From IMG/VR virus record IMGVR_UViG_2698536302_000011, positions 1 to 34,665 of that record: 34,665 nucleotides of DNA. One strand, written 5' to 3'. Origin of the DNA: a virus. Its lineage: Duplodnaviria > Heunggongvirae > Uroviricota > Caudoviricetes. Positions 1,358 through 23,343 of the stretch are shown here, one piece after another. Position numbers and translations under genes: made by a program. Each line of letters starts with the position of its first letter. Position 1 is the stretch's first letter. The notes beneath the pieces were generated by a model that was not told the origin of the DNA, ran no database searches, and was given only the letters and a program-made list of their open reading frames with translations.

Positions 1358-1418
1358 GGCTATCACTCCGGAACACGCCAGTTGCAGAATACCAACGACA
1401 ACTGGCGACGGTTGAACA

Positions 1419-3890
1419 TTAAAAATCAGCCTGACTCGGGATCAGTTTTTGCCAGATAGCTGAAACGTATTTTGCCTGGTAACGAGCGTCATCAAGTGCA
1501 TTATGGCGCTCACCTTCGAATGGGATAGCAGTTCTGGCATCGAAGTCTATGGCTTTCCCCAGCTCAACGATTGTGCGTACATCGCGATCGTTGTAGTAAC
1601 GCCACGGGTAGGGGATCCCCTGCCGCTCGTATGAACGGCGCAAAATCGTGTTGTCGAAGTTGGCTCCATTTCCCCAGACCTGAACAAAAAATTCACCGGA
1701 GTTTTCGTCGATAAATTCCCGCAATTGTAACAGTGCATCATCTAACGGGATTTCATCGGTCATAATGGCAGATTGCGCCTCGCGTGATTGCTTAAGCCAC
1801 CATTTAATGGTGTCACGATCAATGACTCCGCCAGCAGTTTCCAGATCGATAGTCTTACTAAATTCCGGTCCCATATCTCCGGTTTGCGGATCGAAAAATA
1901 TTGCACCTATTGAGATAATCGGGGCATCAGGATTTTTTCCCATGGTTTCAAGGTCGATCATTAGATGGTCACACGTCCTGCTGGTGGATGTGATAACGCG
2001 ATGACCGTTCACCGTAATTAAGGGATCTGCCGTCTCGCCAGTTTCACTATCGCTGGCGTGATCCTGAGCGCTGCCAGCATTCTCCTTGTGTGGGTGTTCA
2101 GCGCCTTCCATTTTCTCCGAATCGTCTTCCTGAACTTCAACCTGGTTCTTGTCATCGAATGTTTCCTGGTATGTTGCGTCGCCCATCACCGCACCACAAT
2201 CAGGGCAGTTGCCACCACCGCTCTGACCGCAGGCGGTGCAGATTTTTTCCGGTTCCTGTTGCACTACTGGTTCAGGTTGTTTCGTTTCTGGCTCGTTTTG
2301 TTGCGTATTTGGGCTGTTTTGTTCCGCTTTCTGGTCGTTCTGTTCCGTTTCTTGCTGGTTCTGGTTCACAGTATCGCGGGTCTGGATCCCCTTAACCCAT
2401 TTCGGATCATTCGGGTCGCTAATCCCTTCAATAAATTCACCACGTGATGCAGCAAGCAACTTATCGGCGTCAGGCTGGCTGATATTGGCTGCCTGCATAA
2501 TTTTGTTTACTTCGTCAGCGGTAACTTTTACCGGTTCTGGCTGTGCGGTCGTGTCAGATGCACCAGTATTTTGTTGTGAACCTGAGTATGTACTGTTTTT
2601 GCGGGCGAAATATTCTTCTTTCGTGATTTCAGTAGCCCCGGCAGCCAGCGCCTTATCCAGACCAGAAAGTTTGTTTGCGCGACCGTATTTTTCGCCATCC
2701 TTGTCGGTGAAGAGGAAGTAGAACGGCCCCTCACGCTCTACAGATGGTTCGACTTCCACTTTGCATTCGGTTTTTTCGTTGTCCGGAATTGCCGTTTCCA
2801 CTGCATCAGTTTCTGGTACTGGCGACGAGAGAGTATCAGTTGCGCTCTGATTTGTTCCTTCATCTTCAAACACGCCCTTTGTAGTCAGGTATTCAGTAAT
2901 GTATTTGTTCAGTGCCACAGGGTCTTTGTGAATGTCGATCGGACGTTCACGGACAAGGCCAAAAATAGTCTGGCGGTCGTAGCGAAGGGCATCAGGCTGT
3001 TTGCGCATTGATGCCGAGATACGCTTCCAGTCTTCGCGGTCGTTGTCGATAACTTCATTTTTTGCCCAGCGATGAATGCTGCCGTCAATGTTTCCGGCAT
3101 CCACATCACCAGGCCAGAGAGCGTAGGCCAGTTCGTCATCCAGTGTTTTCCATGTCTGCTTGTATTCGCGATGAGTGGCAGCAATGACCGGGCTGATTTT
3201 TCCTGTTGAACTTTCAGTGTTCTGTTGATTGGCTCTGGCGCGGGCGAGATCAACAACAGACGTGTATTTTCCGGTTCCCTTGCGTTCACCTTCGCGACGT
3301 TTTTTCCAGATGCGCATCTCTGCCTGAATTTCGGGCCATTTAGCTCCAGGCTTACATTTATGCTTAACCCACCCGATGGCATGCAACTTAAGTTCCGGAT
3401 ACATGGCGTTAACTTCTGGCATTTTCATCAACGCTTCAACGATATGTCCGTCGAATGTTGCCATGTCTTCCTGCAACAGTTCCTGTGCACTAATCACCAT
3501 ATCAACGGTGATGTTTTCACATGTGTCGAACTTAACCATGACAGCGTTCTGTACTTCAGGGGCCAGCTTGTCAAAAGTGACGTTCATCGGATTTGATTCA
3601 GTCTCAACCGGGACAAAGGAAGCTGACTCCTCATCCCAGCGGTTTTCCCGCATATATTCAGCATCCCAGGAATCGAGGGCAGGGCGGGGTATACCGGGTT
3701 TATCCTCGCAGACAAGAAATTTATAAGCGCAGTCCTGAGCAGCCGGATATTGCTCCAGGAATTGCCAGGTAAATTTGGCACGGGCGCGGCGTTCGTCACC
3801 GGCTTCAATGGCAGTGGCTACAGCAACTGCACCTTCTTCCTTTATTGCCTGTTCGTCCGGAATGGCGGCGCAAATAAAGACTTTACTCAT
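1419..3890 (-). CDS. RecE-like (exonuclease VIII family) N-terminal region fused to a DnaQ-like DEDDh 3'-5' exonuclease domain
   Basis: 823-aa ORF; 'DKLLAASRGEFIEGISDPNDPKWVKGIQTRD' matches my memory of Rac RecE; C-terminal ~180 aa carries DEDDh motifs ('MIDLETMG', 'WGNGANFD', 'HNALDDARYQAKY'); CxxC-x8-CxxC zinc ribbon 'CTACGQSGGGNCPDCG'; GAGG RBS upstream of the ATG at 3890. Confidence 0.7.
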   Translation of the reverse strand: MSKVFICAAIPDEQAIKEEGAVAVATAIEAGDERRARAKFTWQFLEQYPAAQDCAYKFLVCEDKPGIPRPALDSWDAEYMRENRWDEESASFVPVETESNPMNVTFDKLAPEVQNAVMVKFDTCENITVDMVISAQELLQEDMATFDGHIVEALMKMPEVNAMYPELKLHAIGWVKHKCKPGAKWPEIQAEMRIWKKRREGERKGTGKYTSVVDLARARANQQNTESSTGKISPVIAATHREYKQTWKTLDDELAYALWPGDVDAGNIDGSIHRWAKNEVIDNDREDWKRISASMRKQPDALRYDRQTIFGLVRERPIDIHKDPVALNKYITEYLTTKGVFEDEGTNQSATDTLSSPVPETDAVETAIPDNEKTECKVEVEPSVEREGPFYFLFTDKDGEKYGRANKLSGLDKALAAGATEITKEEYFARKNSTYSGSQQNTGASDTTAQPEPVKVTADEVNKIMQAANISQPDADKLLAASRGEFIEGISDPNDPKWVKGIQTRDTVNQNQQETEQNDQKAEQNSPNTQQNEPETKQPEPVVQQEPEKICTACGQSGGGNCPDCGAVMGDATYQETFDDKNQVEVQEDDSEKMEGAEHPHKENAGSAQDHASDSETGETADPLITVNGHRVITSTSRTCDHLMIDLETMGKNPDAPIISIGAIFFDPQTGDMGPEFSKTIDLETAGGVIDRDTIKWWLKQSREAQSAIMTDEIPLDDALLQLREFIDENSGEFFVQVWGNGANFDNTILRRSYERQGIPYPWRYYNDRDVRTIVELGKAIDFDARTAIPFEGERHNALDDARYQAKYVSAIWQKLIPSQADF

Positions 3891-4235: not shown

Positions 4236-4801
4236 AATTATCTCCATTTTTACAAATGAACTTTGTTGATGCGGTGCCTGGTGCCTCCAGGTGACGTTAA
4301 CCAGTTAACAATTAACGCCGGATACAGAGAACCCACCCATAACACTGTTTTTGGTTTTAACTGTTCCGCGTGCGCTCAGCCGCATTCACCGCATCACAAA
4401 ACTCACTTTAAAAAGGGCGGCAGACCAGTCACGGAGTAAAACTGATACCGCCAAACGTCACCAGAAAATTGATAACAGAGGGCGTTGCAGCGGGGTTGTC
4501 ACTTAAGCGTATGGTCAACCTGACAACCCGGTGTCCTCAACGGGGAAGGAATAACCCCGCCATACTTACCGCCGCGCCATTTCGCGGAGTGCCACAACCG
4601 GAAGCGCACGGTCGACGAAAATTTAACGACAGGCTATCTATGAACCAGCTACCTCGCCGTGCGCTTTCGCGTTATGGTCTGACTTTTCAGGGAAATATCC
4701 TTTCAGTAAACTGTCAGTGCCGGATGCTCACCCGTGTCCGGCGCACGCACTCCACCTCACCCGTGGAGAACTCCTTAATCACCAACCCTCAGGAGGGTGA
4801 A

Positions 4802-5077: not shown

Positions 5078-5375
5078 TGCTTTTTGTTGCAAGGTAATTT
5101 TCAAGGGGTTCTATTCGAATCCCTTTCTTTTTCATTAACAAGCCAAACCCCTTATCAATGATGTCCATTAGATCCAGGAAGTATTTTTCATGTAAATCCA
5201 GGTTATCAGAGAGCTGCTTCTCTTCGTACAGACCGATAAAGGCACGACGCACGTTACCGGATATAGTATCGATGGTTTCTTTTTCTACGGTACTCAGGTC
5301 AAGAGTCGCCAGTTGGGAACGAACTATATTCGCTGCCATTTCCTGGAATTGCATTGGTAAATCTTTAAATTCCAT
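5046..5375 (-). CDS. Hypothetical early-region protein
   Basis: 109-aa ORF with GAGG upstream of the ATG; leftward orientation consistent with a PL-type early operon; no recognisable domain. Confidence 0.45.
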   Translation of the reverse strand: MEFKDLPMQFQEMAANIVRSQLATLDLSTVEKETIDTISGNVRRAFIGLYEEKQLSDNLDLHEKYFLDLMDIIDKGFGLLMKKKGIRIEPLENYLATKSINSFDSKQEN

Positions 5376-5397
5376 TATTAGCCTCGTTGGTTAGCTA

Positions 5398-5616
5398 TTA
5401 ACGCGGGCATGTAATCATTCTGGCAATGCTTAATGCCGCTGCTTTTTCCAGCCTGGTGATATCCTGCTCCAGAGCGGACAGATTTTCAGCCTGCTTAGCC
5501 TTGGCTTCATTGGCCCATTTCAGATCCTGCGCTGCATTAATTTTCTGGCGCATCCACTCATAAAGTTCATCATCGGTATAGTCTGGCGCGATGATGACGG
5601 GTTCTCGTTTCTGCAT
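5398..5616 (-). CDS. Hypothetical small coiled-coil protein
   Basis: 72-aa ORF in the leftward early operon; charged, helix-rich composition. Confidence 0.4.
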   Translation of the reverse strand: MQKREPVIIAPDYTDDELYEWMRQKINAAQDLKWANEAKAKQAENLSALEQDITRLEKAAALSIARMITCPR

Positions 5617-7366: not shown

Positions 7367-8420
7367 GTGAGTATGGCTAACGCCTGGCTCAGATTATGGC
7401 ATGACATGCCAAATGACCCTAAGTGGCGAACAATTGCCAGGGTGTCAGGGCAGTCAATTGCAACAGTGATGGCAGTGTATATCCACCTCCTGGTGAGCGC
7501 GTCACGAAATGTCACGCGAGGTCACATTGATGTCACGACAGAAGATTTGGCAAGTGCGCTCGACGTGACAGAAGAGGTAATTGATTCAATTTTGCAGACG
7601 ATGCAGGGGCGGGTACTTGATGGTGATTTAATCACTGGATGGGAAAAACGCCAGGTGCTTAAAGAGGACAACGGCAATATTTCGCAAACCGCAAAATCTC
7701 CTGCAGAGCGCAAGAGGGCGCAGCGAGAGAGGGAAAGAAAGCGGGAACAAAATGGCGATTGTCACGGCGCGTCACGAAATGTCACGCACATGTCACGACG
7801 AGTCACGACAGATANAAGAAGATCAAAACACTATGGTCCATGGCGTAAAAAACGCCACGAACCAGGCAGGGGATGTTCAGACCGTCAATCTTGGTCAGCC
7901 AGCAGGCACGACACCGGAAGCCGATTCAGCGTATGCGCTGAAAGCCGATTCGGGCGCTGTGCAGCAGGTGATGACCGCAAGGCCGGAGCAATCACACCAA
8001 CTGCAGCAGCCTGAAGCCGATTCCGCCATTCAGCGGGAAGCCGATCGGGTAGTCCCGGAAAACACCGGGCAGCCTGTGAGACGAGTGGATTATCCGGATG
8101 TGTTCGAACAGGTCTGGCGGGAATACCCGTTGCGTGCTGGGGCAAACCCGAAGAAATCCGCTTTCAGTGCCTGGAAGGCCAGATTACGCGAGGGGGTGTC
8201 ACCAGAGGCCATGCTGGATGGCGTGAGGCGTTACGCAAGATACCTTGCGGCTACCGGGAAAACGGGAACGGAATTTGTTCAGCGAGCGACGACGTTTTTT
8301 GGGCCGGACCGGAATTTTGAAAACCCCTGGTTGCTCCCGGTAAGCGGCACGAACAACCAGCGTTGTGTGAATCATATTTCTGAACCGGATACCGAAATTC
8401 CACCGGGCTTCAGGGGGTAA
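7367..8420 (+). CDS. Replication-initiator-like protein (O-like / YdaU-type) with internal iterons; apparent frameshift at ambiguous base 7815
   Basis: Two overlapping track ORFs (7367-8014 and 7752-8420) in different frames; the frame switch coincides with the N at 7815 right after the second GTCACG cluster; gene sits in the replication position downstream of the cro/CII-like genes. Confidence 0.5.
7497..7544. repeat. Iteron cluster 1: four GTCAC(G/A) repeats at ~10-11 bp spacing
   Basis: gtcacg at ~7501, 7511, 7532 and gtcaca at ~7521; 18-mer cgtcacgaaatgtcacgc shared with cluster 2. Confidence 0.6.
7761..7808. repeat. Iteron cluster 2: five GTCACG repeats at ~10-11 bp spacing
   Basis: gtcacg at ~7761, 7771, 7781, 7792, 7802; followed by the ambiguous base at 7815. 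Confidence 0.6.
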
Positions 8421-9550: not shown

Positions 9551-10087
9551 GTGGAGATAATAATGGAAATAACTAAAGAACGATTATTGGAAATAGCAAA
9601 TCTTAGTGAAAGGGCATTAAGTGATGGGAGGATTATTTCTCCTGATGCTTATGAATCAGTTACAAGTATAGAAATAATAACGATGGCCAGGATGCTTCTT
9701 GGTTGCCTCAAAAAAGAATATAAAAAAAAGGTGGATAGCAATGCTAATATATATGATATTTTGGACAGTTGGGGGGCTTGGGCTGCAGCTGGAAATAGTT
9801 CTATCAACTGGCAGCAAGTGGCTGATAAATATAAAGATGTAGTACCTCATGGTAAGAAATTACGCCGTCAGTGTGGCAACGATGAAGGTCGTATGATTGA
9901 TACCTGCATGTTGAAGCTTAAACAATATAGAATAGATGACTATGAGTTAATTATCGCTCATTTTGTTATAGGTATATCTTTGCGTACAATAGCACGAAGG
10001 TACAAATGTTCAGATGGAACAATAAGAAAGAATATACAACTTACAATGGGAGTATTGTTAGGATTGTCTTTTTATGTGCAATTATAG
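9551..10087 (+). CDS. Q82-type antitermination protein homolog
   Basis: C-terminal ~110 aa align to the phage 82 / DLP12 QuuD family as recalled ('WGAWAA', 'QCGNDEGRMIDTCMLKLK', 'DDYELIIAHFVIGISLRTIARRYKCSDGTIRKNIQ'); ~70-aa N-terminal extension; a shorter start at M45 (~9683) is possible; lies in low-GC DNA. Confidence 0.5.
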   Translation: MEIIMEITKERLLEIANLSERALSDGRIISPDAYESVTSIEIITMARMLLGCLKKEYKKKVDSNANIYDILDSWGAWAAAGNSSINWQQVADKYKDVVPHGKKLRRQCGNDEGRMIDTCMLKLKQYRIDDYELIIAHFVIGISLRTIARRYKCSDGTIRKNIQLTMGVLLGLSFYVQL

Positions 10088-11502: not shown

Positions 11503-11950
11503 TGCAAAAATTTCCTGTAAAAAATAATTACATACTTAAGATACTACAAAGAATAATGCGTACGCAAAATTTTTTGTTGAGTAGAATATGTTCGCGGGGT
11601 ATTTTTCGTTAAGATATAATTACCATGGTAACTTTTGCGTTGGTAATGCATTATGTGGTGGAGAAAAAGAGAGAGTCTTATCTTTAAATTATCGCCAGCC
11701 TATATGACTATATGAGTAGTATTTAGATGGGAAATTGTTGAGTTATTGAAAGGAACCATAACCTTTATGTAAAATTACTGCGGGTGCTTGAGGTTATCTG
11801 TCTCAGGCATGCCACCAAAAGGCAGATAGAGAAAAGCCCCAGTTAACGTTACGCGTCCTGCAAGACGTTTAACATTAATCTGAGGCTCAATCTATGAACG
11901 GCAAATCTAGGTTAGCCTCTTACGTGCCGAAAGGCAAGGAGAAGCAGGCT

Positions 11951-12106
11951 ATGAAGCAGCAAAAGGCGATGTTAATCGCCCTGATCGTCATCTGTTTAAC
12001 CGTCATAGTGACGGCACTGGTAACGAGGAAAGACCTCTGCGAGGTACGAATCCGAACCGGCCAGACGGAGGTCGCTGTCTTCACAGCTTACGAACCTGAG
12101 GAGTAA
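11951..12106 (+). CDS. hok: Hok/Gef-family type I toxin
   Basis: 51 aa 'MKQQKAMLIALIVICLTVIVTALVTRKDLCEVRIRTGQTEVAVFTAYEPEE' aligns to Hok ('...[25 protein letters not shown]'); the track ORF extends in frame upstream to 11894 (possible mok-like leader). Confidence 0.85.
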   Translation: MKQQKAMLIALIVICLTVIVTALVTRKDLCEVRIRTGQTEVAVFTAYEPEE

Positions 12107-13603: not shown

Positions 13604-13969
13604 ATGACTGAACGCATAGAATTTGTTTTGCCTTACCCGCCAACGGTGAACACTTACTGGCGACGTCGTGGCAGCACATATTTTGTATCAAAAGCCGGTG
13701 AGCGTTATCGCCGTGATGTGGCGCTTATTGTTCGCCAGCAGCGGCTGAAATTAAACCTGTCCGGAAGGCTGGCGATAAAGATTATTGCAGAGCCACCGGA
13801 TAAACGTCGTCGTGACCTGGACAATATCCTGAAAGCACCACTGGATGCGCTGACGCATGCCGGACTACTCATAGACGACGAGCAGTTTGATGAAATCAAT
13901 ATTGTGCGCGGTCAGCGCGTTCCTGGGGGGCGGCTGGGCGTGAAGATTTACAAAATTGAGAGTGAGTGA
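13604..13969 (+). CDS. rusA: RusA-family Holliday junction resolvase
   Basis: 121 aa; 'VLPYPPTVNTYWRRRG...', 'PDKRRRDLDNILKAPLDALTHAGLLIDDEQ' match the RusA family. Confidence 0.85.
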   Translation: MTERIEFVLPYPPTVNTYWRRRGSTYFVSKAGERYRRDVALIVRQQRLKLNLSGRLAIKIIAEPPDKRRRDLDNILKAPLDALTHAGLLIDDEQFDEINIVRGQRVPGGRLGVKIYKIESE

Positions 13970-14520
13970 TCGTAAATATGATATACCCGGAAATTACAGG
14001 CAAAAGCGGCGAGCATTTACGTCTAAAAACGCTGGAAGCCGTCTGGATCCAGGGGAAATTACGGATGTGGGGGCGTTGGTCGTATATAGGTGGTGGCAAA
14101 CCAGGAAATATGTTCAATCAGTTGCTGGCATCCAAAAAACTGACAAAAACCGCAATCAATGAAGCCCTGCGTAGAATCAGGGAGTCAGGGATTGATAAAC
14201 CAGAGCTGGAAGCATTCTTGCGAGAGATGATCGCTGGCAGACAGAAGAGCTGGTTGTCTCACTGTACTGATGCAGAGGCGTTACGCATTGATGGGGTGAT
14301 AAGTAAAGCGCTTGCACGTTATCCTGGATTGATTGATATCCTGCGGCAAAGGTACGAAGGGCGGGGGATGAGTAAACGCAAAATGGCTGAATTGTTGAAT
14401 GAGGTGCACCCGGAATGGTGTTTTAGTACATGCGAAAAGCGAATTGCTAATTGGTTAGCTGTTGCTGAATATGCGCTATACATCCCTATGCGAGAATCGT
14501 TTGCTCAAAAAATGTCTTGA
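13966..14520 (+). CDS. Putative late-gene regulator in the Q position (family uncertain)
   Basis: 184 aa directly after rusA; followed by the same terminator + small-ORF + methyltransferase unit that follows the lambda-Q-type fragment in the paralogous copy; no confident motif match. Confidence 0.35.
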   Translation: MIVNMIYPEITGKSGEHLRLKTLEAVWIQGKLRMWGRWSYIGGGKPGNMFNQLLASKKLTKTAINEALRRIRESGIDKPELEAFLREMIAGRQKSWLSHCTDAEALRIDGVISKALARYPGLIDILRQRYEGRGMSKRKMAELLNEVHPEWCFSTCEKRIANWLAVAEYALYIPMRESFAQKMS

Positions 14521-14604
14521 TTTTTTACGCATAAACTGTTTCAATCCAGCTACGCTTCGCAAAGCTATACCGCGAGGCGAATAGCAGACATGGACACCTG
14601 AAAG

Positions 14605-14628
14605 AACCCGCTTTATGCGGGTTTTTTT
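14605..14628 (+). terminator. Rho-independent terminator
   Basis: ACCCGC-TTTAT-GCGGGT hairpin plus T7 run. Confidence 0.6.
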
Positions 14629-14658
14629 GTGCCCGAAAAGCGGTACAGGACGTTAAAT

Positions 14659-15169
14659 GCGCTGGTGGTTGCGAATGCCGGTCTTTCAGCTTGCTGGCTT
14701 TTTCGACAAGAGGTATTGGTATGTCACGTTAACCGGAAAAGGGAAAAAGGCATGCTAAAACAGCAGGATATGACCGAAACCGCCAGAGTGGTGTTTAATG
14801 AATTAAGCATCACCGAACCGGCGACCGTCGGGGAAATTGCGCAGAATACTTACCTTTCACGCGAACGCTGCCAGTTAATACTGACTCAGCTTGTTATGGC
14901 GGGTCTGGCAGATTATCAGTTCGGTTGTTACAGACGCCTTCCGCAGTGAAGGCTTTTTAATTTGTGGTAATGGGCGGCTGGTGGGTGTTAGCGGCACCTG
15001 CCAGCCATCTGCTCATGCGTTGGGGTCACAAGCAAACCTCAGGCCCATCTGCTTTGCGCAAAAGCGGTATGAGCCTATCAGAGAAGTGCTTATTGATCTA
15101 TGATTAATACTGTAAAAATATCCAGTTGTGAGTTAATCAACGCTGATTGCCTGGAGTTTATCCAGACCT
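14659..15169 (+). repeat. Direct repeat unit A (small ORF + 5' end of the methyltransferase gene)
   Basis: Near-identical to 15722-16232 (period ~1063 bp); ends at the ambiguous base 15170; its methyltransferase-start sequence is identical to that at 16297 onward. Confidence 0.7.
14752..14949 (+). CDS. Small winged-helix-like protein (repeat copy 1)
   Basis: 65 aa 'MLKQQDMTETARVVFNELSITEPATVGEIAQNTYLSRERCQLILTQLVMAGLADY...'; near-identical copy at 15814-16011. Confidence 0.45.
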   Translation: MLKQQDMTETARVVFNELSITEPATVGEIAQNTYLSRERCQLILTQLVMAGLADYQFGCYRRLPQ

Positions 15170-15170
15170 N

Positions 15171-15589
15171 TCCAGTATCCGGATGGTAAGCCGCCGGTAT
15201 GGGCAAAGTGTACGAAAGGTGTGTATCCGTCTTACTGGGAAGAATGGAAAAAAGTCAGGGAGGTGGTAAAAGTTGCCTGTCCGGAGTGTGGCGGAAAGGG
15301 TGAGGTTTCCACCGCCTGTAAGGATTGCCGTGGGCGTGGTGTCGCCATTCATCGTGAAGAGTCGGTAAAACGTGGTATGCCTGTTATCAGAGACTGCCAG
15401 CGTTGTGGTGGTCGTGGCTATGAAAGACTACCATCAACGGAGGCATTTAATGCTATATGCGAGGTGACAAACCAGATAACACGCGCGTCATGGGAAAAAA
15501 CAGTTAAGAAATTTTATGATGCGCTGGTGACCCGGTTTGATATTGAAGAAGCATGGGCTGAGCGGCAGTTAAAAAAGGTAACTAGGTAA
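15171..15589 (+). pseudogene. Lambda-Q-type antiterminator, C-terminal part only (5' truncated at the N junction)
   Basis: 'CPECGGKGE...CKDCRGRGVA...CQRCGGRGYERLPSTEAFNAICEVTNQITRASWEKTVKKFYDALV' aligns to the C-terminal half of lambda Q; the reading frame is open back to the N at 15170 where unrelated sequence begins; no N-terminal half is present. Confidence 0.55.
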
Positions 15590-15669
15590 CAAGGTTGATT
15601 TTTCCGGAATCTGTGGTAAATTCGTCATAACGATGGGCGTTTTATGCCTGACGTTAGAAGAGTTTCTAC

Positions 15670-15694
15670 AACCCGCCGCCGAGCGGGTTTTTTA
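15670..15694 (+). terminator. Rho-independent terminator
   Basis: ACCCGCCGCCGAGCGGGT hairpin followed by a T run. Confidence 0.55.
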
Positions 15695-15721
15695 TGACTG
15701 AAATCGCGTCAGTACAGTAAA

Positions 15722-16261
15722 CGCGCTGGTGGCGGTGAATACCTGTCTTTCAGCTTGCTGGCTTTTTCGACAAGAGTTATTGGTGTGTCACGTTAACCGG
15801 AAAAGGAAAAGACATGCTAAAACAGCAGGATATGACAGAAACCGCCAGAGTGGTGTTTAATGAATTAAGCGTTACCGAACCGGCGACAGTCGGGGAGATA
15901 GCGCAGAATACTTACCTTTCACGCGAACGCTGCCAGTTAATACTGACTCAGCTTGTTATGGCGGGTCTGGCAGATTATCAGTTCGGTTGTTACAGACGCC
16001 TTCCGCAGTGAAGGCTTTTTAATTTGTGGTAATGGGCGGCTGGTGGGTGTTAGCGGCACCTGCCAGCCATCTGCTCATGCGTTGGGGTCACAAGCAAACC
16101 TCAGGCCCATCTGCTTTGCGCAAAAGCGGTATGAGCCTATCAGAGAAGTGCTTATTGATCTATGATTAATACTGTAAAAATATCCAGTTGTGAGTTAATC
16201 AACGCCGACTGCCTGGAATTTATCCGGTCGTTACCCGAAAATTCTGTTGACCTGATAGTCA
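15722..16261 (+). repeat. Direct repeat unit B (variant paralogous copy), running into the N gap
   Basis: Same unit as 14659-15169 with scattered substitutions; its methyltransferase 5' end differs at several positions from the copy at 16297. Confidence 0.7.
15814..16011 (+). CDS. Small winged-helix-like protein (repeat copy 2)
   Basis: 65 aa; differs from copy 1 by I->V in 'NELSVTEP'. Confidence 0.4.
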   Translation: MLKQQDMTETARVVFNELSVTEPATVGEIAQNTYLSRERCQLILTQLVMAGLADYQFGCYRRLPQ

Positions 16262-16287
16262 NNNNNNNNNNNNNNNNNNNNNNNNNN
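16262..16287. other. Assembly gap (run of 26 N)
   Basis: Contiguous n characters; the flanks overlap redundantly, both containing the methyltransferase 5' end. Confidence 0.95.
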
Positions 16288-16296
16288 TAATGATCC

Positions 16297-17346
16297 ATGC
16301 TTAATACTGTAAAAATATCCAGTTGTGAGTTAATCAACGCTGATTGCCTGGAGTTTATCCAGACCTTACCGGAAAACTCTGTCGATCTGATAGTCACAGA
16401 CCCGCCATACTTTAAAGTGAAGCCCGAGGGCTGGGATAACCAGTGGGAGGGCGACGATGATTACCTGAAATGGCTGGACCAGTGTCTGGCGCAGTTCTGG
16501 CGGGTACTGAAGCCTGCCGGAAGTCTTTACCTGTTCTGTGGTCATCGCCTGGCATCTGACACCGAAATCATGATGCGTGAGCGCTTTAATGTGCTGAACC
16601 ACATTATCTGGGCGAAGCCGTCCGGACGCTGGAACGGGTGCAATAAGGAAAGTCTGCGGGCGTATTTTCCGGCAACAGAGCGCATTCTGTTTGCAGAACA
16701 TTATCAGGGACCGTATCGCCCGAAAGATGATGGCTATGTGGAGCAGGGGCGCGAGCTAAAACAGCACGTCATGGCCCCGCTGATTTCTTACTTTCGTGAT
16801 GCGCGTAAATCACTGGGAATAACGTCAAAACAGATAGCGGAAGCCACCGGAAAGAAAAACATGGCTTCGCACTGGTTTGGTGCCAGTCAGTGGCAGTTAC
16901 CGAACGAGGGTGATTACAATAAATTGCAGGCGTTGTTTGCGCGTGTTGCGGCAGAAAAACATCAGCGCGGGGAACTGGAAAAGCCACACCACCAGCTGGT
17001 CAGCACATACAGTGAGCTGAACCGGCAGTATACGGAACTGCTGAGTGAATATAAAAATTTGCGGCGGTATTTCGGTGTGACGGCGCAGGTTCCGTACACC
17101 GATGTCTGGACGCATAAACCGGTGCAGTACTATCCAGGGAAACATCCGTGCGAAAAACCGGCAGAAATGCTGCAGCAGATAATCAACGCGAGCAGTCGTC
17201 CGGGAGACCTGGTTGCAGATTTTTTTATGGGTTCAGGTTCAACGGTAAAAGCGGCGATGGCACTGGGGCGTTGTGCGATTGGTGTTGAGCTGGAGACCGG
17301 ACGTTTTGAACAGACAGTCAGGGAAGTTCAGGATTTAATCGTTTGA
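16297..17346 (+). CDS. DNA N6-adenine/N4-cytosine methyltransferase (beta-class; DPPY before FxGxG)
   Basis: 349 aa; motif IV 'DLIVTDPPY' near the N-terminus and motif I 'DFFMGSGST' near the C-terminus. Confidence 0.85.
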   Translation: MLNTVKISSCELINADCLEFIQTLPENSVDLIVTDPPYFKVKPEGWDNQWEGDDDYLKWLDQCLAQFWRVLKPAGSLYLFCGHRLASDTEIMMRERFNVLNHIIWAKPSGRWNGCNKESLRAYFPATERILFAEHYQGPYRPKDDGYVEQGRELKQHVMAPLISYFRDARKSLGITSKQIAEATGKKNMASHWFGASQWQLPNEGDYNKLQALFARVAAEKHQRGELEKPHHQLVSTYSELNRQYTELLSEYKNLRRYFGVTAQVPYTDVWTHKPVQYYPGKHPCEKPAEMLQQIINASSRPGDLVADFFMGSGSTVKAAMALGRCAIGVELETGRFEQTVREVQDLIV

Positions 17347-17395
17347 AACGGATGAGATTGCAGAATTAATTACGCACCATTATTATTCTGCTCCC

Positions 17396-17471
17396 GGCCC
17401 TTTAGCTCAGTGGTGAGAGCGAGCGACTCATAATCGCCAGGTCGCTGGTTCAAATCCAGCAAGGGCCACCA
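17396..17471 (+). tRNA. tRNA with CAU anticodon (Met or lysidine-modified Ile2)
   Basis: Cloverleaf folded by hand: acceptor GGCCCTT/AAGGGCC, D-arm GCTC...GAGC, anticodon loop CTCATAA, T-arm GCTGG-TTCAAAT-CCAGC, encoded CCA. Confidence 0.85.
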
Positions 17472-17478
17472 TCACATA

Positions 17479-17555
17479 CCGCCATTAGCTCATCAGGATA
17501 GAGCGCCAGCCTTCGAAGCTGGTTGCGCGGGGTTCGAGTCCTCGATGGCGGTCCA
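17479..17555 (+). tRNA. tRNA-Arg (anticodon UCG)
   Basis: Acceptor CCGCCAT/ATGGCGG, anticodon loop CTTCGAA, T-loop TTCGAGT, encoded CCA. Confidence 0.85.
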
Positions 17556-17568
17556 TTATCTGTACCCT

Positions 17569-17645
17569 GCGTTGTTAGCTCAGCCGGACAGAGCAATTGC
17601 CTTCTAAGCAATCGGTCACTGGTTCGAATCCAGTACAACGCGCCA
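17569..17645 (+). tRNA. tRNA-Arg (anticodon UCU)
   Basis: Acceptor GCGTTGT/ACAACGC, anticodon loop CTTCTAA, T-loop TTCGAAT, encoded CCA. Confidence 0.85.
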
Positions 17646-17658
17646 CGCTTATTTTTCC

Positions 17659-17683
17659 AGGCTCGCTTCGGCGGGCCTTTTTC
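17659..17683 (+). terminator. Rho-independent terminator after the tRNA cluster
   Basis: AGGCTCGC-TTCG-GCGGGCCT hairpin followed by TTTTT. Confidence 0.55.
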
Positions 17684-18129
17684 ATATCCGCGCCCGTTAT
17701 GAAGCGCCACCGCGTTCTGCTAATGCTGAAGCCCTTCGTCAGCTGACTGATGTTGCAGATACTGATGATACTGTGAATGTGCTGTGTCTGTGTCTGGATA
17801 TCGCTGACCAGGACGGTATCGGTCAGGAAGAAGAAGCGCAACTGAAGAAAATTGCGCAGGCGCTGCAGTTGCCGCTGGAGCAGTACCTGTGAAAAGTGCG
17901 CGCCTTGTGCTGGCTGTCATCCTGTTGTTTCTGGTAGTGATGGTGGATTTCACCGGACGACTGATGTCAGTGCTGGCAGATGGTGTGCTGGTGGCGATGG
18001 CGCTGATCGTGCTCCGGCCTTTACTGCGTAAATCTGAATAACATCACACAAAAGGCATCTGCGGGTGCCTTTGACGGGGTGTTTTTTTACGGGTCGCTGG
18101 TGGCCCTTTTTTTATTTTCAGGAGGAAGT

Positions 18130-18522
18130 ATGTCTGAACCCTTATCCGGTTCCGGCACGGCTGCGGCGCTGGGTGGCGCGACGGTATTCGGGCTGTTTAC
18201 CGGGATGGATTTCGGGATTGTGTTTGGCGCGTTCGCCGGGGCGTTATTTGTGGCAACGATGCCGCAGTCACTTTCAGTCTGGCGCGTGGTGGCGCATTTT
18301 CTGGTGTCGTTTATTGTCGGCGTGCTGGGAGCGCGTGTGCTGTCAGCCTGGATTGCATCAAAAACAGGGTATGACGGTACATCAGCAGATGCGCTTTGCG
18401 CGGTGCTGGTCTCGGTGGTGTCGGTGAAGATTCTCTCGTTCATCCACCAGCAGGATATTGCATCGCTGGTGTCCGGTGTGTTCTCCCGCCTGCGGGGTGG
18501 AGGAGGCGGCAATGTTAAGTAA
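18130..18522 (+). CDS. Putative holin (multi-TM membrane protein)
   Basis: ~130 aa from the ATG at 18130 (GGAGGAAG RBS); several hydrophobic helices; first gene of the lysis-position cassette; C-terminal Gly/Arg-rich tail. Confidence 0.55.
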   Translation: MSEPLSGSGTAAALGGATVFGLFTGMDFGIVFGAFAGALFVATMPQSLSVWRVVAHFLVSFIVGVLGARVLSAWIASKTGYDGTSADALCAVLVSVVSVKILSFIHQQDIASLVSGVFSRLRGGGGGNVK

Positions 18523-18787
18523 CCTTCCCGGATTGCTGAATGTGGCGTTATGCACGGTTATCGTGCTGACGCTCTTTTTTTATCGTCGCCGTGATTCCAG
18601 ACATAAACCGCTGGTGTCATGGCTGGCCTGGCTGCTGATGCTGCTGTATGCCTTTGCGCCCCTCAGCTATCTGTGTGGTCGCCCGTTAGCAACGGGCTGG
18701 CTGGAAGTGTTTTTTAACCTGCTGTTCTGCGTGCTGGTGATACACGCACGCGGGAACGTCACAAAAATCTTTCCATTGTTGAGGTGA
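18512..18787 (+). CDS. Second lysis-cassette membrane protein (holin/antiholin-like, ~3 TM)
   Basis: ~91 aa from the ATG at 18512 preceded by GGAGGAGG; overlaps the upstream gene end; hydrophobic helices 'LLNVALCTVIVLTLFF', 'LVSWLAWLLMLLYAF', 'FFNLLFCVLVI'. Confidence 0.5.
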   Translation: MLSNLPGLLNVALCTVIVLTLFFYRRRDSRHKPLVSWLAWLLMLLYAFAPLSYLCGRPLATGWLEVFFNLLFCVLVIHARGNVTKIFPLLR

Positions 18788-18789
18788 AT

Positions 18790-19167
18790 ATGCCGGGTAA
18801 ATTCAGATTCAGCCGTCGCAGTGAAAAAAATCTGGAGGGTGTCAAACCACAGCTGGTTGCTGTAGTTCGCCGTGCGCTGGAGCTGACGGAGGTTGATTTC
18901 GGTATTACGGAAGGCCTGCGCAGTAAGTATCGCCAGAAACAGCTGGTTGCGGAAGGGAAAAGCCAGACCATGAACAGCCGCCACCTGACCGGTGATGCGG
19001 TGGATGTTGTGGCCTACATCGGCAGCCAGGTGTCATGGGAGTGGCCTCTGTACGAGAAAATCGCACAGGCATTTAAGCAGGCTGCCGCAGAGCTGGGGAT
19101 CGCTATCGAATGGGGCGGGGACTGGAAAACGCTGAAAGACGGACCTCACTTTCAGCTGAAGCGATAA
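18790..19167 (+). CDS. Endolysin, peptidase M15 family (L-alanyl-D-glutamate peptidase-like)
   Basis: 126 aa; 'SRHLTGDAVD' and 'DGPHFQ' match the zinc-binding H-x(6)-D ... H pattern of M15/VanY-type peptidases; ATG at 18790 after GAGGTGA. Confidence 0.65.
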   Translation: MPGKFRFSRRSEKNLEGVKPQLVAVVRRALELTEVDFGITEGLRSKYRQKQLVAEGKSQTMNSRHLTGDAVDVVAYIGSQVSWEWPLYEKIAQAFKQAAAELGIAIEWGGDWKTLKDGPHFQLKR

Positions 19168-19178
19168 GTAAAACAAAA

Positions 19179-19208
19179 CCCCGGCTGGGGGAACAGTCCG
19201 GGGTTTTT
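19179..19208 (+). terminator. Rho-independent terminator after the endolysin
   Basis: CCCCGG...CCGGGG hairpin followed by TTTTT. Confidence 0.6.
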
Positions 19209-19441
19209 AGTTTTCACGTCAAAGGGGAAATTGTGATTAGTGAGTACGGAGAAAATCCTCGTGGGAAAGTATAAAAGATTCTTTTTGAGGTTGTCCATTA
19301 TGAAAGGTATTGAAATGGAAACTCCCGCGAGCCTTGATTTGACAAGGGCTGCGGCCTTTGCAATTCGCCTTGTGGCGGTCGCTGTTCTGATTTGGGCTGT
19401 GCGTTGGTGGTGATATGGCGCGAAAACACTGGACACACAGA

Positions 19442-19597
19442 ATGCCGCGAACGGCGGTGAAACGGGCACTGGTAGCGATACTGGTGCCTTTTTTATTGGT
19501 GGGGTGCGTCAGCCTGGATAAGGCGCGCCAGCTTTTCGATACCGCGTCTCAGGTCTGTGAAATTGTCGACGGTGTTCGGCAGTGTCTGCAGAACTGA
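19442..19597 (+). CDS. Small lipoprotein (possible outer-membrane spanin-like or other small lipoprotein)
   Basis: 'MPRTAVKRALVAILVPFLLVGC' has a signal-peptide n/h region and an LVGC lipobox; mature part ~30 aa with two Cys; preceded by a 37-codon hydrophobic mini-ORF (~19300-19413). Confidence 0.4.
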   Translation: MPRTAVKRALVAILVPFLLVGCVSLDKARQLFDTASQVCEIVDGVRQCLQN

Positions 19598-19768
19598 TCG
19601 CCTGTAAGAGCAGAATATTTTGCTGAAAAATGAAGGGTGCGTCAGCGTCCGGAAAGCATGAAATTCTGTGTTTGTGGCTACTCAATAAAATAAATTCTTT
19701 CTGTCGCCGCGAATACTCAAATGTTGATCAGTGCCCGGTGCGGCGACGGGCTTCGATATCAGGAGACG

Positions 19769-20164
19769 ATGATGGAAAAAACAGAAAACAAACCGATTGT
19801 AATTGGTGCTGATGCTGCTCCGTTTAAGTTTGAGTTGTCTCAACTGGTGGAGATGCGTATCAGTGATGAATGGGGTGAGGTTAAAGCCCGCGCGCAGTAT
19901 GCGGATGGCGAAAACCAGTACTTGATCCACTACAAAGCAGCTGATGGTCGCGCCACGACGGAGTGGTTTGGTGAGTCAATGCTGGAAGCAACAGAAGATG
20001 ATCGTCATCCGGGTTGTCCGGTATTTGCCGGTATGAAATTACCGGAAGGTGCAGTTGAACTGCAGCCGGGTGAGGTGTTCGTAATGACAGACATCATTGA
20101 TGGTAAACCGCAGTATTCGCGTATTGAAATGAATAGTAAGAGTGCTCGCCTGATTCGTGAGTAA
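19769..20164 (+). CDS. Hypothetical protein
   Basis: ~131 aa from 'MMEKTENKPIV...'; AGGAG upstream; no recognised family. Confidence 0.45.
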   Translation: MMEKTENKPIVIGADAAPFKFELSQLVEMRISDEWGEVKARAQYADGENQYLIHYKAADGRATTEWFGESMLEATEDDRHPGCPVFAGMKLPEGAVELQPGEVFVMTDIIDGKPQYSRIEMNSKSARLIRE

Positions 20165-20560
20165 CAGGCATTACAGCAGCCCTTCACTCTAAGGGGTTGC
20201 TGTAATGTGAGAAATAAAAAACCGGTCACAGGGAGCAGCTACACAGAAGCGGCCGGCGAAGACCGCCAATACCACCCATGCATTGATGCAACATACTAAT
20301 GACAATAGCCGCTATTGATGTAAATGCAATGTTATGCATCGACGAAAATAAAAAACCGGCAGGGGAAATCCATTGAAGATTTGCCGGTGGCAAAAGAGGG
20401 CCATGTTTTTAACCTTAGTCGCAGAGTTACGGAGTGCAACTACGAATGCTGCCGGTATATGGCTGAATGGCGTTTCAATGATGTACGTCATCTTATCTGT
20501 AAATGTTAATGACAAACGCTCTCATTTGTGCGGGTCCTTCCGGTGGGGTGGCCTGCCACG

Positions 20561-20572
20561 GGGCGGGAGCGT
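20561..20572. other. cos site (cosN-like cohesive-end sequence)
   Basis: '...gtgcgggtccttccggtg...cacg|GGGCGGGAGCGT|cgcgg...' parallels the lambda right-end / cosN / left-end arrangement ('...ttacg|GGGCGGCGACCT|cgcgggttttcgc...'); ~175 bp upstream of the small terminase gene. Confidence 0.6.
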
Positions 20573-20746
20573 CGCGGAAAAAGGCTAGTTTTTGAAATTT
20601 TATTCGTCATCACCACCACTGTAATAGATTGATATTACAGTGGTTTTATTTTTATGGTGTCGATTTTGATTGTTTTTTGTTCATCACTAACACCGTTTGC
20701 CTAAAGTTGTTCGCGAGATGCATGTTTAAAACATTCTGGAGCGGGT

Positions 20747-21241
20747 ATGGATCGAGAGTTAAAAAATCTGACGCTGAATATCAGTCAACTGGCGGCACTG
20801 TCAGGTGTACATCGCCAGACTGCTGCGGCAAGGCTGCAAAATCTACCCGTTGCAGGGGGGCATGAAAGCAACCTCAAGCTTTATCGGGTGGTTGATATTG
20901 TGTCGGCATTTCTGGCATTGCCACCGCCGGTTGCAGAAGGCGAAATGGACGCGCATGAGCGCAAAGCCTGGTATCAGTCTGAACGTGAGCGTCTTAAGTT
21001 CGAACAGGAAACGGCACAACTCATTCCGGCCAGTGATGTCAGACGGGAGTTTGCCATCTGGGCAAAAGCGGTCGTGCAGGTGCTGGAGACATTACCGGAT
21101 ATTCTGGAACGTGACTGCGGTCTGCAGCCTGCCGCTGTGAGCCGTGTTCAGTCCATTATTGATGATCTGCGCGATCAGATAGCCCTGCGGGTGACTGAAG
21201 CAGGTGCGGATGATGAGGAGGAATTACAGCAGGAGGAGTAA
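20747..21241 (+). CDS. nu1: Terminase small subunit (lambda Nu1-like)
   Basis: 164 aa; N-terminal HTH ('LTLNISQLAALSGVHRQT'); immediately upstream of and 1-nt overlapping the large terminase gene; acidic C-terminus. Confidence 0.75.
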   Translation: MDRELKNLTLNISQLAALSGVHRQTAAARLQNLPVAGGHESNLKLYRVVDIVSAFLALPPPVAEGEMDAHERKAWYQSERERLKFEQETAQLIPASDVRREFAIWAKAVVQVLETLPDILERDCGLQPAAVSRVQSIIDDLRDQIALRVTEAGADDEEELQQEE

Positions 21242-23343
21242 TGCTGAATCAGGAAACCGCAAAGGCAGCACGAACCGATTCAGGTTATATCCTTCGCGCA
21301 CCGAGACGAATGCGGGTTGCTGATGCCGTTGCTCAGTATATGCGGGTGCCCATGGGGGCAGGGAACTCAGTCCCGTGGGATCCGCTGGTGGCACCGTATG
21401 TTATTGAGCCGATGAACTGCCTGGCCTCGCGTGAATACGACGCAGTGATATTTGTTGGCCCGGCACGAACCGGCAAGACTATCGGCCTGATTGACGGCTG
21501 GGTGATTTACAACGTGATTTGCGATCCTGCTGATATGCTGATCATTCAGATGACGGAGGAAAAAGCCCGCGAACACTCCAAAAAACGACTCGCCAGAACG
21601 TTTCGCGTCAGCCCGGAAGTGGTCAGTCGCCTGAGTCCGAACAAAAATGACAACAACGTTTATGACAGAACATTCCTTGCTGGTAACTACCTGAAAATCG
21701 GCTGGCCGTCAGTCAATATCATGTCCTCATCAGATTATAAATGCGTCGCGCTGACGGATTATGACCGTTTTCCGGAAGATATTGATGGCGAGGGGGATGC
21801 TTTCTCTCTTGCCTCAAAACGTACCACCACATTTATGTCCAGCGGTATGACGTTGGTGGAGAGTTCCCCCGGCAGGGATGTGAAGGATGTGAAATGGCGA
21901 CGGACTTCACCGCATGAGGCTCCACCAACCACGGGGATCCTGTCGCTCTATAACCGTGGTGATCGCCGTCGCTGGTACTGGCCCTGTCCACACTGTGGTG
22001 AGTATTTTCAGCCCTGCGGCGATGTGGTTGCTGGTTTCCGTGATATTGCCGATCCCGTGCTGGCAAGTGAGGCGGCTTATATTCAGTGTCCTTCCTGTTC
22101 AGGACGGATTATGCCTGAACAAAAACGTGAGCTGAACGGACGTGGGGTCTGGTTGCGGGATGGTGAATCCATCAATGCGGATGGCAGTCGTTATGGTGAT
22201 CCCCGACGCTCACGTATTGCGTCATTCTGGATGGAGGGTCCGGCAGCTGCTTACCAGACACTCTCGCAACTCGTTTACAAACTGCTTACTGCAGAACAGG
22301 AATACGAGACAACCGGAAGTGAAGAAACACTCAGGGCGGTTATCAATACCGACTGGGGATTACCTTATCTTCCCCGCGCCAGCATGGAGCAACGAAAAAG
22401 TGAACTGCTTGAGCAGCGGGCAGAGCCAGTTCTTTCCCGCAGTGTGCCGGATGGCGTTAATTTCCTTGTGGCGACAGTGGATGTGCAGGCGGGACGTCAT
22501 CGCCGTTTTGTGGTTCAGGTAACGGGCTATGGCAGCCGTGGCGAACGCTGGATTATTGATCGTTACAACATCACGCAGTCATTGCGCGGTGACAGCGACG
22601 GGGAGAGCCAGCGAATTGATCCGGCCAGCTATCCGGAAGACTGGGATGTCCTGCTGACGGATGTTTTTCATAAAAGCTGGCCGCTGGCCTCCAATCCTTC
22701 TCAACAAATGCGACTGATGGCAATGGCGGTGGACTCCGGCGGTGAAGACGGGGTCACTGATAATGCCTATAAATTCTGGCGTCGTTGCCGTCGTGATGGC
22801 CTTGGTAAACGTATTTACCTGTTTAAGGGCGACAGCATCCGGCGCGCAAAACTGATCACCCGTACATTCCCTGATAACACCGGACGAACGGGCCGACGGG
22901 CGCAGGCCGCAGGTGATGTGCCGCTCTGGCTTCTTCAGACGGATGCACTGAAAGACCGGGTGAATAACGCGTTATGGCGTGACTCGCCAGGTCCAGGCTA
23001 TGTGCATTTCCCTGACTGGCTGGGGAGCTGGTTTTACGACGAACTGACGTATGAAGAGCGGAGCAGTGACGGGAAATGGAGTAAGCCGGGTCGCGGTGCC
23101 AACGAAGCTTTTGACCTGATGGTGTATGCCGAGGCTCTGGTCATTCTGCATGGATACGAAAAGATCCGCTGGCCGGATGCACCGGAGTGGGCGAGCCGGG
23201 AAACCTGGCTGGAGTGTGTCCAGGACAGTACTGAACCGTCATCCTCACCGGAACCGGTATCCACGCCTGTTAAAAAACAAAAACGGAAGAAAACAGTAAC
23301 TGACGATGTTAACCCCTGGCTGACTTCCGGAGGATGGTTATGA
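21241..23343 (+). CDS. A: Terminase large subunit (lambda gpA-like)
   Basis: 700 aa; Walker-A-like 'VGPARTGKT'; 'WYWPCPHCGEYFQP'; followed by W-like and portal genes. Confidence 0.9.
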   Translation: MLNQETAKAARTDSGYILRAPRRMRVADAVAQYMRVPMGAGNSVPWDPLVAPYVIEPMNCLASREYDAVIFVGPARTGKTIGLIDGWVIYNVICDPADMLIIQMTEEKAREHSKKRLARTFRVSPEVVSRLSPNKNDNNVYDRTFLAGNYLKIGWPSVNIMSSSDYKCVALTDYDRFPEDIDGEGDAFSLASKRTTTFMSSGMTLVESSPGRDVKDVKWRRTSPHEAPPTTGILSLYNRGDRRRWYWPCPHCGEYFQPCGDVVAGFRDIADPVLASEAAYIQCPSCSGRIMPEQKRELNGRGVWLRDGESINADGSRYGDPRRSRIASFWMEGPAAAYQTLSQLVYKLLTAEQEYETTGSEETLRAVINTDWGLPYLPRASMEQRKSELLEQRAEPVLSRSVPDGVNFLVATVDVQAGRHRRFVVQVTGYGSRGERWIIDRYNITQSLRGDSDGESQRIDPASYPEDWDVLLTDVFHKSWPLASNPSQQMRLMAMAVDSGGEDGVTDNAYKFWRRCRRDGLGKRIYLFKGDSIRRAKLITRTFPDNTGRTGRRAQAAGDVPLWLLQTDALKDRVNNALWRDSPGPGYVHFPDWLGSWFYDELTYEERSSDGKWSKPGRGANEAFDLMVYAEALVILHGYEKIRWPDAPEWASRETWLECVQDSTEPSSSPEPVSTPVKKQKRKKTVTDDVNPWLTSGGWL

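Follow-up and report, generated by a model that had tools for sequence, protein, structure and literature searches.

We analysed a 34,665-nt stretch of viral DNA (IMG/VR record IMGVR_UViG_2698536302_000011, called the window over its whole length) with regard to a tciA–tciB gene pair that lies between a tRNA cluster and the lysis genes. In our reading, which we hold to be very probably correct, this region is the leader of a Q-dependent late operon of an Escherichia coli lambdoid prophage and is built of two modules, in the second of which tciA was inactivated by one 354-bp repeat-mediated deletion. The first module, consisting of a 65-aa open reading frame (ORF), a DNA methylase, a pT-like promoter, the tRNA genes ileZ, argN and argO and a terminator, can be equated from its sequence with the module that precedes stx2AB in Shiga toxin 2 (Stx2) phages, and the second, the tciA–tciB pair, is homologous to tciAB of phage P1, placed at the position of stx. 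The prophage region itself is ordinary, being already sequenced and annotated in public genomes.

The slot between the third tRNA and the holin start measures 484 bp (17646–18129). A first-pass annotation, made from the letters of the window alone, had described a methylase, three tRNAs (CAU, UCG and UCU anticodons) and lysis genes in the order known from Stx-converting phages but without stx, and had proposed that an ORF fragment in the slot might be left over from displaced cargo. All elements of this order are present at the coordinates it gave, and the slot aligns to tciA and tciB with no stx sequence present. Its content is an ORF tail that lacks a start, with a translation ending in ...DQDGIGQEEEAQLKKIAQALQLPLEQYL before the stop at 17892, and a 50-codon hydrophobic ORF at 17889–18041. 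The features on which the argument turns are the following.

17684..17694 (+): single kept copy of the 11-bp repeat ATATCCGCGCC, the deletion junction, from alignment with the intact allele
17695..17892 (+): tciA (TerB-family) remnant, codons 77–141 plus stop, a pseudogene, from alignment with the 141-aa gene
17889..18041 (+): tciB-like DUF3927 gene, 50 aa, two hydrophobic segments, intact (Pfam DUF3927 54.6 bits, cutoff 25)

The undamaged form of the slot is found in E. coli E400634 and in phage pPE4, both of which carry an intact 141-aa TerB-family gene followed by a DUF3927 gene, the pair in pPE4 lying upstream of the same lysis genes. The intact E400634 allele contains ATATCCGCGCC at locus positions 5385 and 5739, two copies at a distance of 354 bp, of which one is left in the window. 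The 354 bp that are missing comprise a 126-nt upstream region, the ribosome-binding site, the start codon and codons 1–76, with nothing inserted instead, and a loss of this kind is typical of replication slippage or of a microhomology-mediated event between 11-bp direct repeats. The intact E400634 protein is 85.8% identical to P1 TciA over 141 aa (tblastn) and, at 32.4 bits, passes the Pfam TerB (PF05099) cutoff of 24.4 bits, whereas the window remnant scores 14.2 bits and fails. Between the remnant and the intact allele, 4 of 65 residues are exchanged, and the remnant has neither start codon nor ribosome-binding site, the first in-frame ATG, GTG or TTG occurring at 17773. A search by sequence for relatives of TciA with solved structures returned chance-level matches only, the deleted 126 nt upstream of tciA folded no better than shuffled sequences when considered as a structured 5′ untranslated region or riboswitch (z = −0.78), and among RNA families searched in and around the slot with Rfam only the tRNAs passed, isrK-like and STnc100-like matches lying far below threshold.

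The deletion is not confined to the window. A 71-bp probe spanning the junction matched at full length in 22 of 5,426 complete E. coli genomes, including that of the enterotoxigenic E. coli (ETEC) strain H10407, and the kept tciA-3′/tciB segment was matched at 99% identity or more also in 22 genomes, an agreement with the junction set that is one of number only. Over the same segment the sampled intact alleles are ∼95% identical or less, and 164 genomes contain, at 80% coverage or more, the segment that the window has lost. As far as these alignments go, the distribution points to a single deletion in an ancestor, passed on with the prophage, rather than to a recurrent hotspot. Four complete genomes (IrN, Cn5, STS63-1-E and CKJ_1000_3.1) are 100% identical to the window over 17300–18200, and other genomes match this interval in two pieces across about 1,253 bp instead of 901. 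Complete E. coli genomes label the slot ‘tellurite resistance TerB family protein’ and ‘DUF3927 family protein’. The IrN prophage is 99.7% identical to window positions 16288–23200, the end of the compared locus, and H10407 has the gene order of the window from DUF968 through the endolysin.

Of the explanations that compete with a wholly inactivated cassette, the one that survives best is that the cassette is only half dead, with TciB still expressed from late or read-through transcripts and functional alone, which would explain why it is intact in all carriers. The tciB gene has kept its GTG start with GGAG 8 nt upstream, differs from the partner of the intact allele only by the two conservative substitutions V18M and V40I, and is present under one accession (‘DUF3927 family protein’, WP_000833651.1) in both IrN and H10407. 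The start of tciB, however, is merged with the tciA stop in GTGA, an overlap that points to translational coupling with tciA, which has itself ceased to be translated. Furthermore, the deleted lineage is young, with at least 99% identity among carriers, such that intactness may reflect a lack of time for decay, and between two intact alleles 7 of the 50 residues of TciB have changed, showing that constraint is not strong. We therefore regard a functional TciB on its own as possible but rather unlikely. The hydrophobic mini-ORF of about 50 codons that the first-pass annotation had reported is in any case present, though as a conserved, intact DUF3927/TciB-like gene, which goes partly against the first-pass reading of the slot. 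Small genes beside tciA are likewise labelled ‘TciB-like’ in LMessi, P1 and JLK-2012.

A much weaker proposal is that the truncated ORF encodes a real, shorter TerB-family protein, a functional mini-TciA acting with TciB. In IrN, the Prokaryotic Genome Annotation Pipeline (PGAP) annotates the remnant as a 93-aa ‘TerB family protein’ (WP_050490208.1; IrN locus 5312–5593, corresponding to window 17611–17892). The same annotation occurs in at least four other genomes, and the frame is indeed open upstream through the terminator into the tRNA. Against this, the annotated start falls inside tRNA-Arg(UCU) and the ORF crosses the terminator hairpin, none of the codons ATG, GTG and TTG stands in frame before 17773, no Shine–Dalgarno-like sequence is visible upstream of that position, the kept part stays below the Pfam TerB threshold (14.2 versus 24.4 bits), and the remnant has accumulated four lineage-specific amino-acid changes. 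PGAP itself treats the sequence as a partial pseudogene in H10407, where RefSeq flags it as ‘incomplete; missing N-terminus’. A functional mini-TciA is in our judgement quite improbable; the 93-aa entry is regarded as an annotation artefact, with RefSeq inconsistent between IrN and H10407.

The module to the left of the slot carries the likeness to Stx phages, and its features are these.

16297..17346 (+): DNA methyltransferase, beta-class N6/N4 family (PF01555, E 2e-44; DPPY motif in the translation)
17358..17386 (+): pT-like sigma-70 promoter, TTGCAG-17 nt-TATTAT, of putative function, aligning with the annotated pT of phage 06-3462
17396..17471 (+): tRNA with CAU anticodon, ileZ-type (ARAGORN; Rfam 72.5 bits)
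17479..17555 (+): tRNA-Arg (UCG), argN-type (ARAGORN; Rfam 56 bits)
17569..17645 (+): tRNA-Arg (UCU), argO-type (ARAGORN; Rfam 70.1 bits)
17659..17683 (+): intrinsic terminator closing the tRNA cluster (8-bp stem with 6 G-C pairs, T-run)

The methyltransferase is probably N6-adenine-specific; adenine-specific NCBIfam models matched it only far below their cutoffs. PADLOC assigned it to MTase_II (PDLC03265, E 1e-159) and found no partner restriction enzyme, and at the nucleotide level it is ∼90% identical to the ‘DNA methylase’ of Stx2 phages. The pT-like element lies below threshold in a simple promoter scan, and the feature of 06-3462 with which it aligns is labelled ‘pT; putative tRNA promoter’.

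ARAGORN, run over the window, found exactly three tRNAs, and all three are supported by Rfam (RF00005, gathering score 29 bits) with E-values of 1e-9 to 3e-14; CCA is encoded in each of them. The tRNA calls of the first-pass annotation are thereby borne out. The CAU tRNA is identical at 76 of 76 positions to ileZ of Stx2 phages and at 65 of 76 to P1 trnI, which is itself annotated as 89% identical to E. coli ileX. It is labelled Met by ARAGORN and tRNA-Ile by PGAP in identical genomes, and its acceptor stem contains the pairs C4:G69 and C5:G68, which are determinants for TilS; it is probably a tRNA-Ile2, the type whose CAU anticodon is modified with lysidine. The UCG tRNA is identical to Stx2-phage argN at 75 of 77 positions, and the UCU tRNA shares 76 matching positions with Stx2-phage argO, the annotated feature of which is 79 nt long. 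In H10407, the middle tRNA (Arg-UCG, H10407 locus 4401–4477) shows ∼17 clustered substitutions relative to the window with identical flanks; some of the changes break the first acceptor-stem pairs, PGAP leaves the gene unannotated, ARAGORN still calls a tRNA, and the sequence has the look of a patch brought in by recombination or of a tRNA in decay.

The terminator that follows the tRNAs is conserved in 06-3462, where it is annotated as such, in the E. coli allele with intact tciA, and in phage pPE4, which has no tRNAs. This conserved terminator forms the left boundary of the cargo slot.

Homology to Stx phages stops just beyond this boundary. When the interval 17300–18200 was compared with phage genomes, 291 phage records matched, nearly all of them from Stx2-converting phages that did so at query positions 2–395 only, which is the 3′ end of the methylase, the tRNAs and 49 bp beyond. 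With the longer interval 15600–17700, ∼20 phages matched at ∼90% identity across 95% of the query; nearly all of these phages are Stx2-converting, among them phiP27, Stx2a_1447/WGPS2 and 1720a-02. In every case the Stx2-phage homology ends at window position 17694 (query 2095), and stx2A begins there in those phages. The Stx-phage architecture thus holds by sequence as well as by gene order, for the left flank.

This coincidence brings up a third explanation, that the fragment was left when stx or other cargo was displaced, making the prophage a former Stx phage. Loss of stx from prophages is known to occur, the left flank shares ∼90% identity with that of Stx2 phages, and the homology breaks off where the stx region begins. 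Yet the fragment aligns codon for codon with tciA, and not with stx or its flanks, and it has no relation to stx. In the intact alleles, tciA and the same terminator adjoin each other and nothing derived from stx stands in between, the loss is a plain internal deletion of 354 bp, and the right flank bears no relation to the nanS-p/S/R/Rz flank found in Stx phages. We consider a former Stx phage very improbable. What remains of the idea of displaced cargo is that the fragment is a gene remnant, namely tciA codons 77–141, but it was truncated from within, not displaced, and nothing took the place of the lost part. Since only the left flank is shared with Stx phages, stx could not be brought into the slot by a simple double crossover.

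That the missing 5′ end of tciA is an assembly or scaffolding artefact is, in our estimate, of vanishing probability: the window does come from a scaffolded draft, with N characters at 7815, 15170 and 16262–16287, but the junction and its surroundings are free of N, 22 finished genomes contain the identical junction, four finished genomes are 100% identical over 17300–18200, and the junction lies between 11-bp direct repeats, as expected of a biological deletion.

Such joins do affect the part of the leader that lies further upstream, where Pfam and PHROG profile searches identify DUF968, RusA and a DUF1133 Q-like antiterminator ahead of the methylase block.

13966..14520 (+): Q-like late antiterminator, DUF1133 family (Pfam DUF1133, E 6e-103)
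14521..14628 (+): putative pR′-type late promoter region and short leader, with the sequence GAACCCGCTTTATGCGGGTTTTTTT
14752..14949 (+): 65-aa winged-helix-like ORF, first copy, between Q and methylase (PHROG 331, E 2e-46)
15170..16287 (no strand): N-bounded extra block, delimited by N positions, repeats and absence from finished genomes

The Q-like gene also matches Phage_antitermQ (28.3 bits, cutoff 26) and PHROG 753, ‘anti-termination protein Q-like’, and H10407 carries the same gene at the equivalent position. The leader behind it ends in a tR′-like intrinsic terminator, a hairpin with T-run at about 14606–14628, and an analogous pR′ and terminator are annotated directly 3′ of Q in Stx2 phage 06-3462. 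An isrK-like Rfam match at 14554–14627 is weak and sub-threshold. The 65-aa ORF, which has weak matches to TrmB/MarR-type winged helix-turn-helix proteins, is WP_000917767.1; it occupies the same position in E. coli genomes, is also kept in Stx2 phages, and has a terminator-like hairpin on its 3′ side (14936–14953).

The extra block begins at the single N at 15170 and contains the C-terminal half of a PF03589 Q gene (15221–15589), a second pR′/tR′-like leader, a second 65-aa ORF (15814–16011), 100 nt of the methylase 5′ end (16162–16261) and the run of 26 Ns at 16262–16287. The PF03589 fragment covers only positions 140–252 of a 253-position PHROG profile. Positions 14637–15199 and 15701–16261 are direct repeats, and the methylase 5′ end occurs in three copies within window 14637–16396. 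The span from RusA to the tRNAs is 2,304 bp in finished genomes versus 3,501 bp in the window, a duplication of the ∼1.1-kb block was seen in none of the finished genomes examined, and it is precisely from 16288 onwards that the window matches the IrN prophage at 99.7%. IrN, Cn5, STS63-1-E, CKJ_1000_3.1, H10407 and their relatives all differ from the window in being without the block 15170–16287. We conclude that the N-bounded block is probably a scaffolding artefact, the simplest reading being that a short contig of another prophage of the same strain was scaffolded into the repeat boundary. The single N at 7815 stands where two long overlapping ORFs in different frames meet (7367–8014 and 7752–8420), and it may be a contig join or an ambiguous base giving an apparent frameshift in an early-region gene. 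The IrN prophage differs from the window in its Q and in having a Ser/Thr protein kinase/PP2C phosphatase pair between Q and the 65-aa ORF (IrN locus 1926–3430), a second variable cargo position in the late leader.

On the other side of the slot, tciB is followed by terminator-like hairpins and the lysis genes, whose starts we took from the PGAP annotation of the identical IrN prophage.

18050..18113 (+): two tandem terminator-like hairpins between tciB and the holin ribosome-binding site, one at 18091–18106 with a T-run, the second GGCATCTGCGGGTGCC with a T-run
18130..19167 (+): lysis cassette (Pfam; PHROG holin and endolysin families)
18130–18522 (+): holin, Phage_holin_8 (Pfam)
18512–18787 (+): second holin, Phage_holin_3_7 (Pfam)
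18790–19167 (+): M15 endolysin, Peptidase_M15_4 (Pfam)

Both hairpins are conserved in the intact allele and in pPE4, and their role is presumably one of insulation. The Pas small RNAs (bioRxiv 10.64898/2026.05.13.724894) were considered for 18042–18129 and set aside, their published context of sialate esterase, holin and lysozyme being different.

The arrangement of promoters and terminators suggests how the leader may work. Hairpins with T-runs occur at about 14606–14628, 14936–14953, 17659–17678 and 18050–18106, and RNA polymerase that starts at pR′ and carries the Q modification would not stop at the terminators behind the leader, behind the tRNAs and ahead of the holin. Late transcription would then take in, as one string, the methylase, the tRNAs, tciAB and the lysis genes. 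In a lysogen, by contrast, likely only the tRNAs would be made, from pT, and the flanking terminators would keep pT transcription out of the lysis genes. A simple scan of the intact allele found no sigma-70-like promoter between the tRNA terminator and tciA, and a tciA without its own promoter fits read-through expression and not a self-contained moron. An intact TciAB would supply an accessory, non-essential function of the lytic programme, probably at the membrane because systems of the TerB type have been associated with resistance to tellurite, colicins and phages. In the window, TciA would be dead and only TciB could still be made.

The tRNAs would decode AUA, CGA/CGG and AGA/AGG, and the first-pass annotation had proposed looking for these rare codons in the late genes. 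With rough K-12 averages as the host baseline (per 1000 codons, AUA about 4–5, AGA 2, AGG 1–1.5, CGA 3.5 and CGG 5.5), this idea is only weakly borne out: late genes contain, per 1000 codons, 4.3 ATA, 3.2 AGA, 3.2 AGG, 6.1 CGA and 13.2 CGG, such that AUA is not enriched and the Arg codons stand at roughly 1.5–2.5 times the host level. The real enrichment sits in the early and accessory genes (15.9 ATA, 8.7 AGA, 5.6 AGG and 8.5 CGA per 1000), and it is these, not the late genes, that carry a rare-codon load that the phage tRNAs could serve. The highest ATA density in the window by far is that of an early-region ORF of 178 codons at 9551–10087 (+), with 14 ATA (∼8%). A literature search on ileZ, argN and argO and on statements about tRNAs and rare codons found nothing useful.

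Several observations weigh against the interpretation of the region as a two-module late leader with an inactivated tciA. Rare codons are only mildly raised in the late genes, giving a benefit of the tRNAs to those genes modest support at best. The names TciA and TciB derive from homology, in P1 as here, and neither protein has a PADLOC or NCBIfam match that would assign it to a defence system. The logic of promoters, terminators and read-through is drawn from sequence and from the precedent of lambda and Stx phages, and the link from Q to the methylase crosses N-bounded joins and is reconstructed from finished genomes such as H10407. The remnant and the intact allele differ at 4 nonsynonymous and 6 synonymous codons, and for two intact alleles compared at these codons the figures are 2 and 10, a hint of relaxed constraint that is weakly suggestive at so very few sites. 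Lastly, with its own GGAG and GTG and with conservative changes only, tciB may mean that the cassette is not entirely dead.

Two further RNA features lie outside the late leader. A full-length Rfam match to the sok antitoxin RNA at 11782–11956 (+) (108.7 bits) implies a hok/sok module, and in H10407 hokD lies just upstream of the matching DUF968–RusA–DUF1133 block. The early region also contains the DicF small RNA at 4415–4466 (−), again a full-length Rfam match (74.2 bits).

Set beside annotated Stx phages, the window shares the left flank of their late region. The published order is rusA–Q–methylase–tRNA–stxAB–yjhS–lysis (PMC3491183, Fig. 5). In Stx2 phage 06-3462 the order is Q, pR′, terminators, a methylase stub, pT, ileZ, argN, argO, terminator, stx2AB, an insertion sequence, nanS-p and holin, and in Stx2a_1447 it is Q, two reverse ORFs, the 65-aa ORF, a full methylase, tRNAs, stx2AB, nanS-p and holin; 933W-type Stx phages keep only the methylase stub. 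The window, in contrast, has neither stxAB nor a nanS-p/yjhS gene downstream of the cargo, and its lysis genes are of a different type (Phage_holin_8, a three-transmembrane holin and an M15 peptidase, versus S/R/Rz in Stx phages), making the right flank unrelated. Its Q is of the DUF1133 type, and the matching prophage loci of E400634 and H10407 annotate terminase and lambda-type tail genes. The methylase/tRNA leader of Stx2 phages is thus in circulation, with different, decayed cargo, among prophages of ETEC and environmental E. coli that are non-toxigenic, which is useful context for the exchange of stx modules.

The cargo itself has closer parallels in lambdoid phages without stx. JLK-2012 (O55:H7), PPyecE_EH1910, LMessi, Evi and Klebsiella phages 1 and 5 LV-2017 all have a tciA gene, with or without tciB, in the stretch that follows Q and ends at the lysis genes, and in them tciA and a small ORF form the first cargo after Q, with or without tRNAs, at the position that stx has in Stx phages. 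Unlike the copy in the window, the tciA genes of these phages are intact, and in JLK-2012, Evi and PPyecE_EH1910 the identity is 41–43%. JLK-2012 and PPyecE_EH1910 also carry nanS-p, which gives the Stx-phage order with tciAB replacing stxAB. The tRNA sets of the stx-less lambdoid phages vary (Asn/Thr/Gly; Ile2/Lys/Arg; Thr; none). TciAB is in this sense a widespread, putatively accessory pair at the head of lambdoid late operons.

In 6 of 11 loci that were sampled, a tciA homologue has tRNA genes no more than ∼750 bp away, and the genome architectures concerned are unrelated, namely the ban operon region of P1, a tRNA island of a jumbo phage and lambdoid late leaders. The neighbouring tRNA sets are (probable) Ile2/Arg/Arg in the window, Asn/Thr plus Ile2 in P1, Asn/Thr/Gly in JLK-2012, Ile2/Lys/Arg in Evi, Thr in a Klebsiella phage and, in the tRNA island of an Erwinia jumbo phage, Trp/Cys/Tyr/Gln/Asp. 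From this co-location one could imagine that tciA(–tciB) and tRNA clusters form a functional cassette, speculatively a lytic-phase counter-measure against tRNA-cleaving colicins or anticodon nucleases that combines replacement tRNAs with a TerB-type envelope protein. We give such a cassette little chance; a shared permissive slot may well explain the proximity.

The likeness to P1 concerns both the genes and their surroundings. In P1, as in the window, there is a small hydrophobic gene (TciB-like/DUF3927) with a start overlapping the tciA stop, and tRNAs adjoin the pair, including one with a CAU anticodon that in the window is probably a tRNA-Ile2. The P1 genes are non-essential for plaque formation (PMC10695390), and tciABC has been lost from about half of one P1-like subgroup, its function being described as unresolved (PMC9603915). 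In the literature searched, we found no experimental test of a tellurite, colicin or phage-resistance phenotype of TciA or TciB. The two systems differ in how the genes are embedded: P1 tciABC lies downstream of the C1-controlled ban promoters, flanked by tRNAs, whereas in the window the pair belongs to a lambdoid, Q-dependent late operon with tRNAs upstream only. By position, the P1 tciABC genes appear to be part of a lytic-phase operon.

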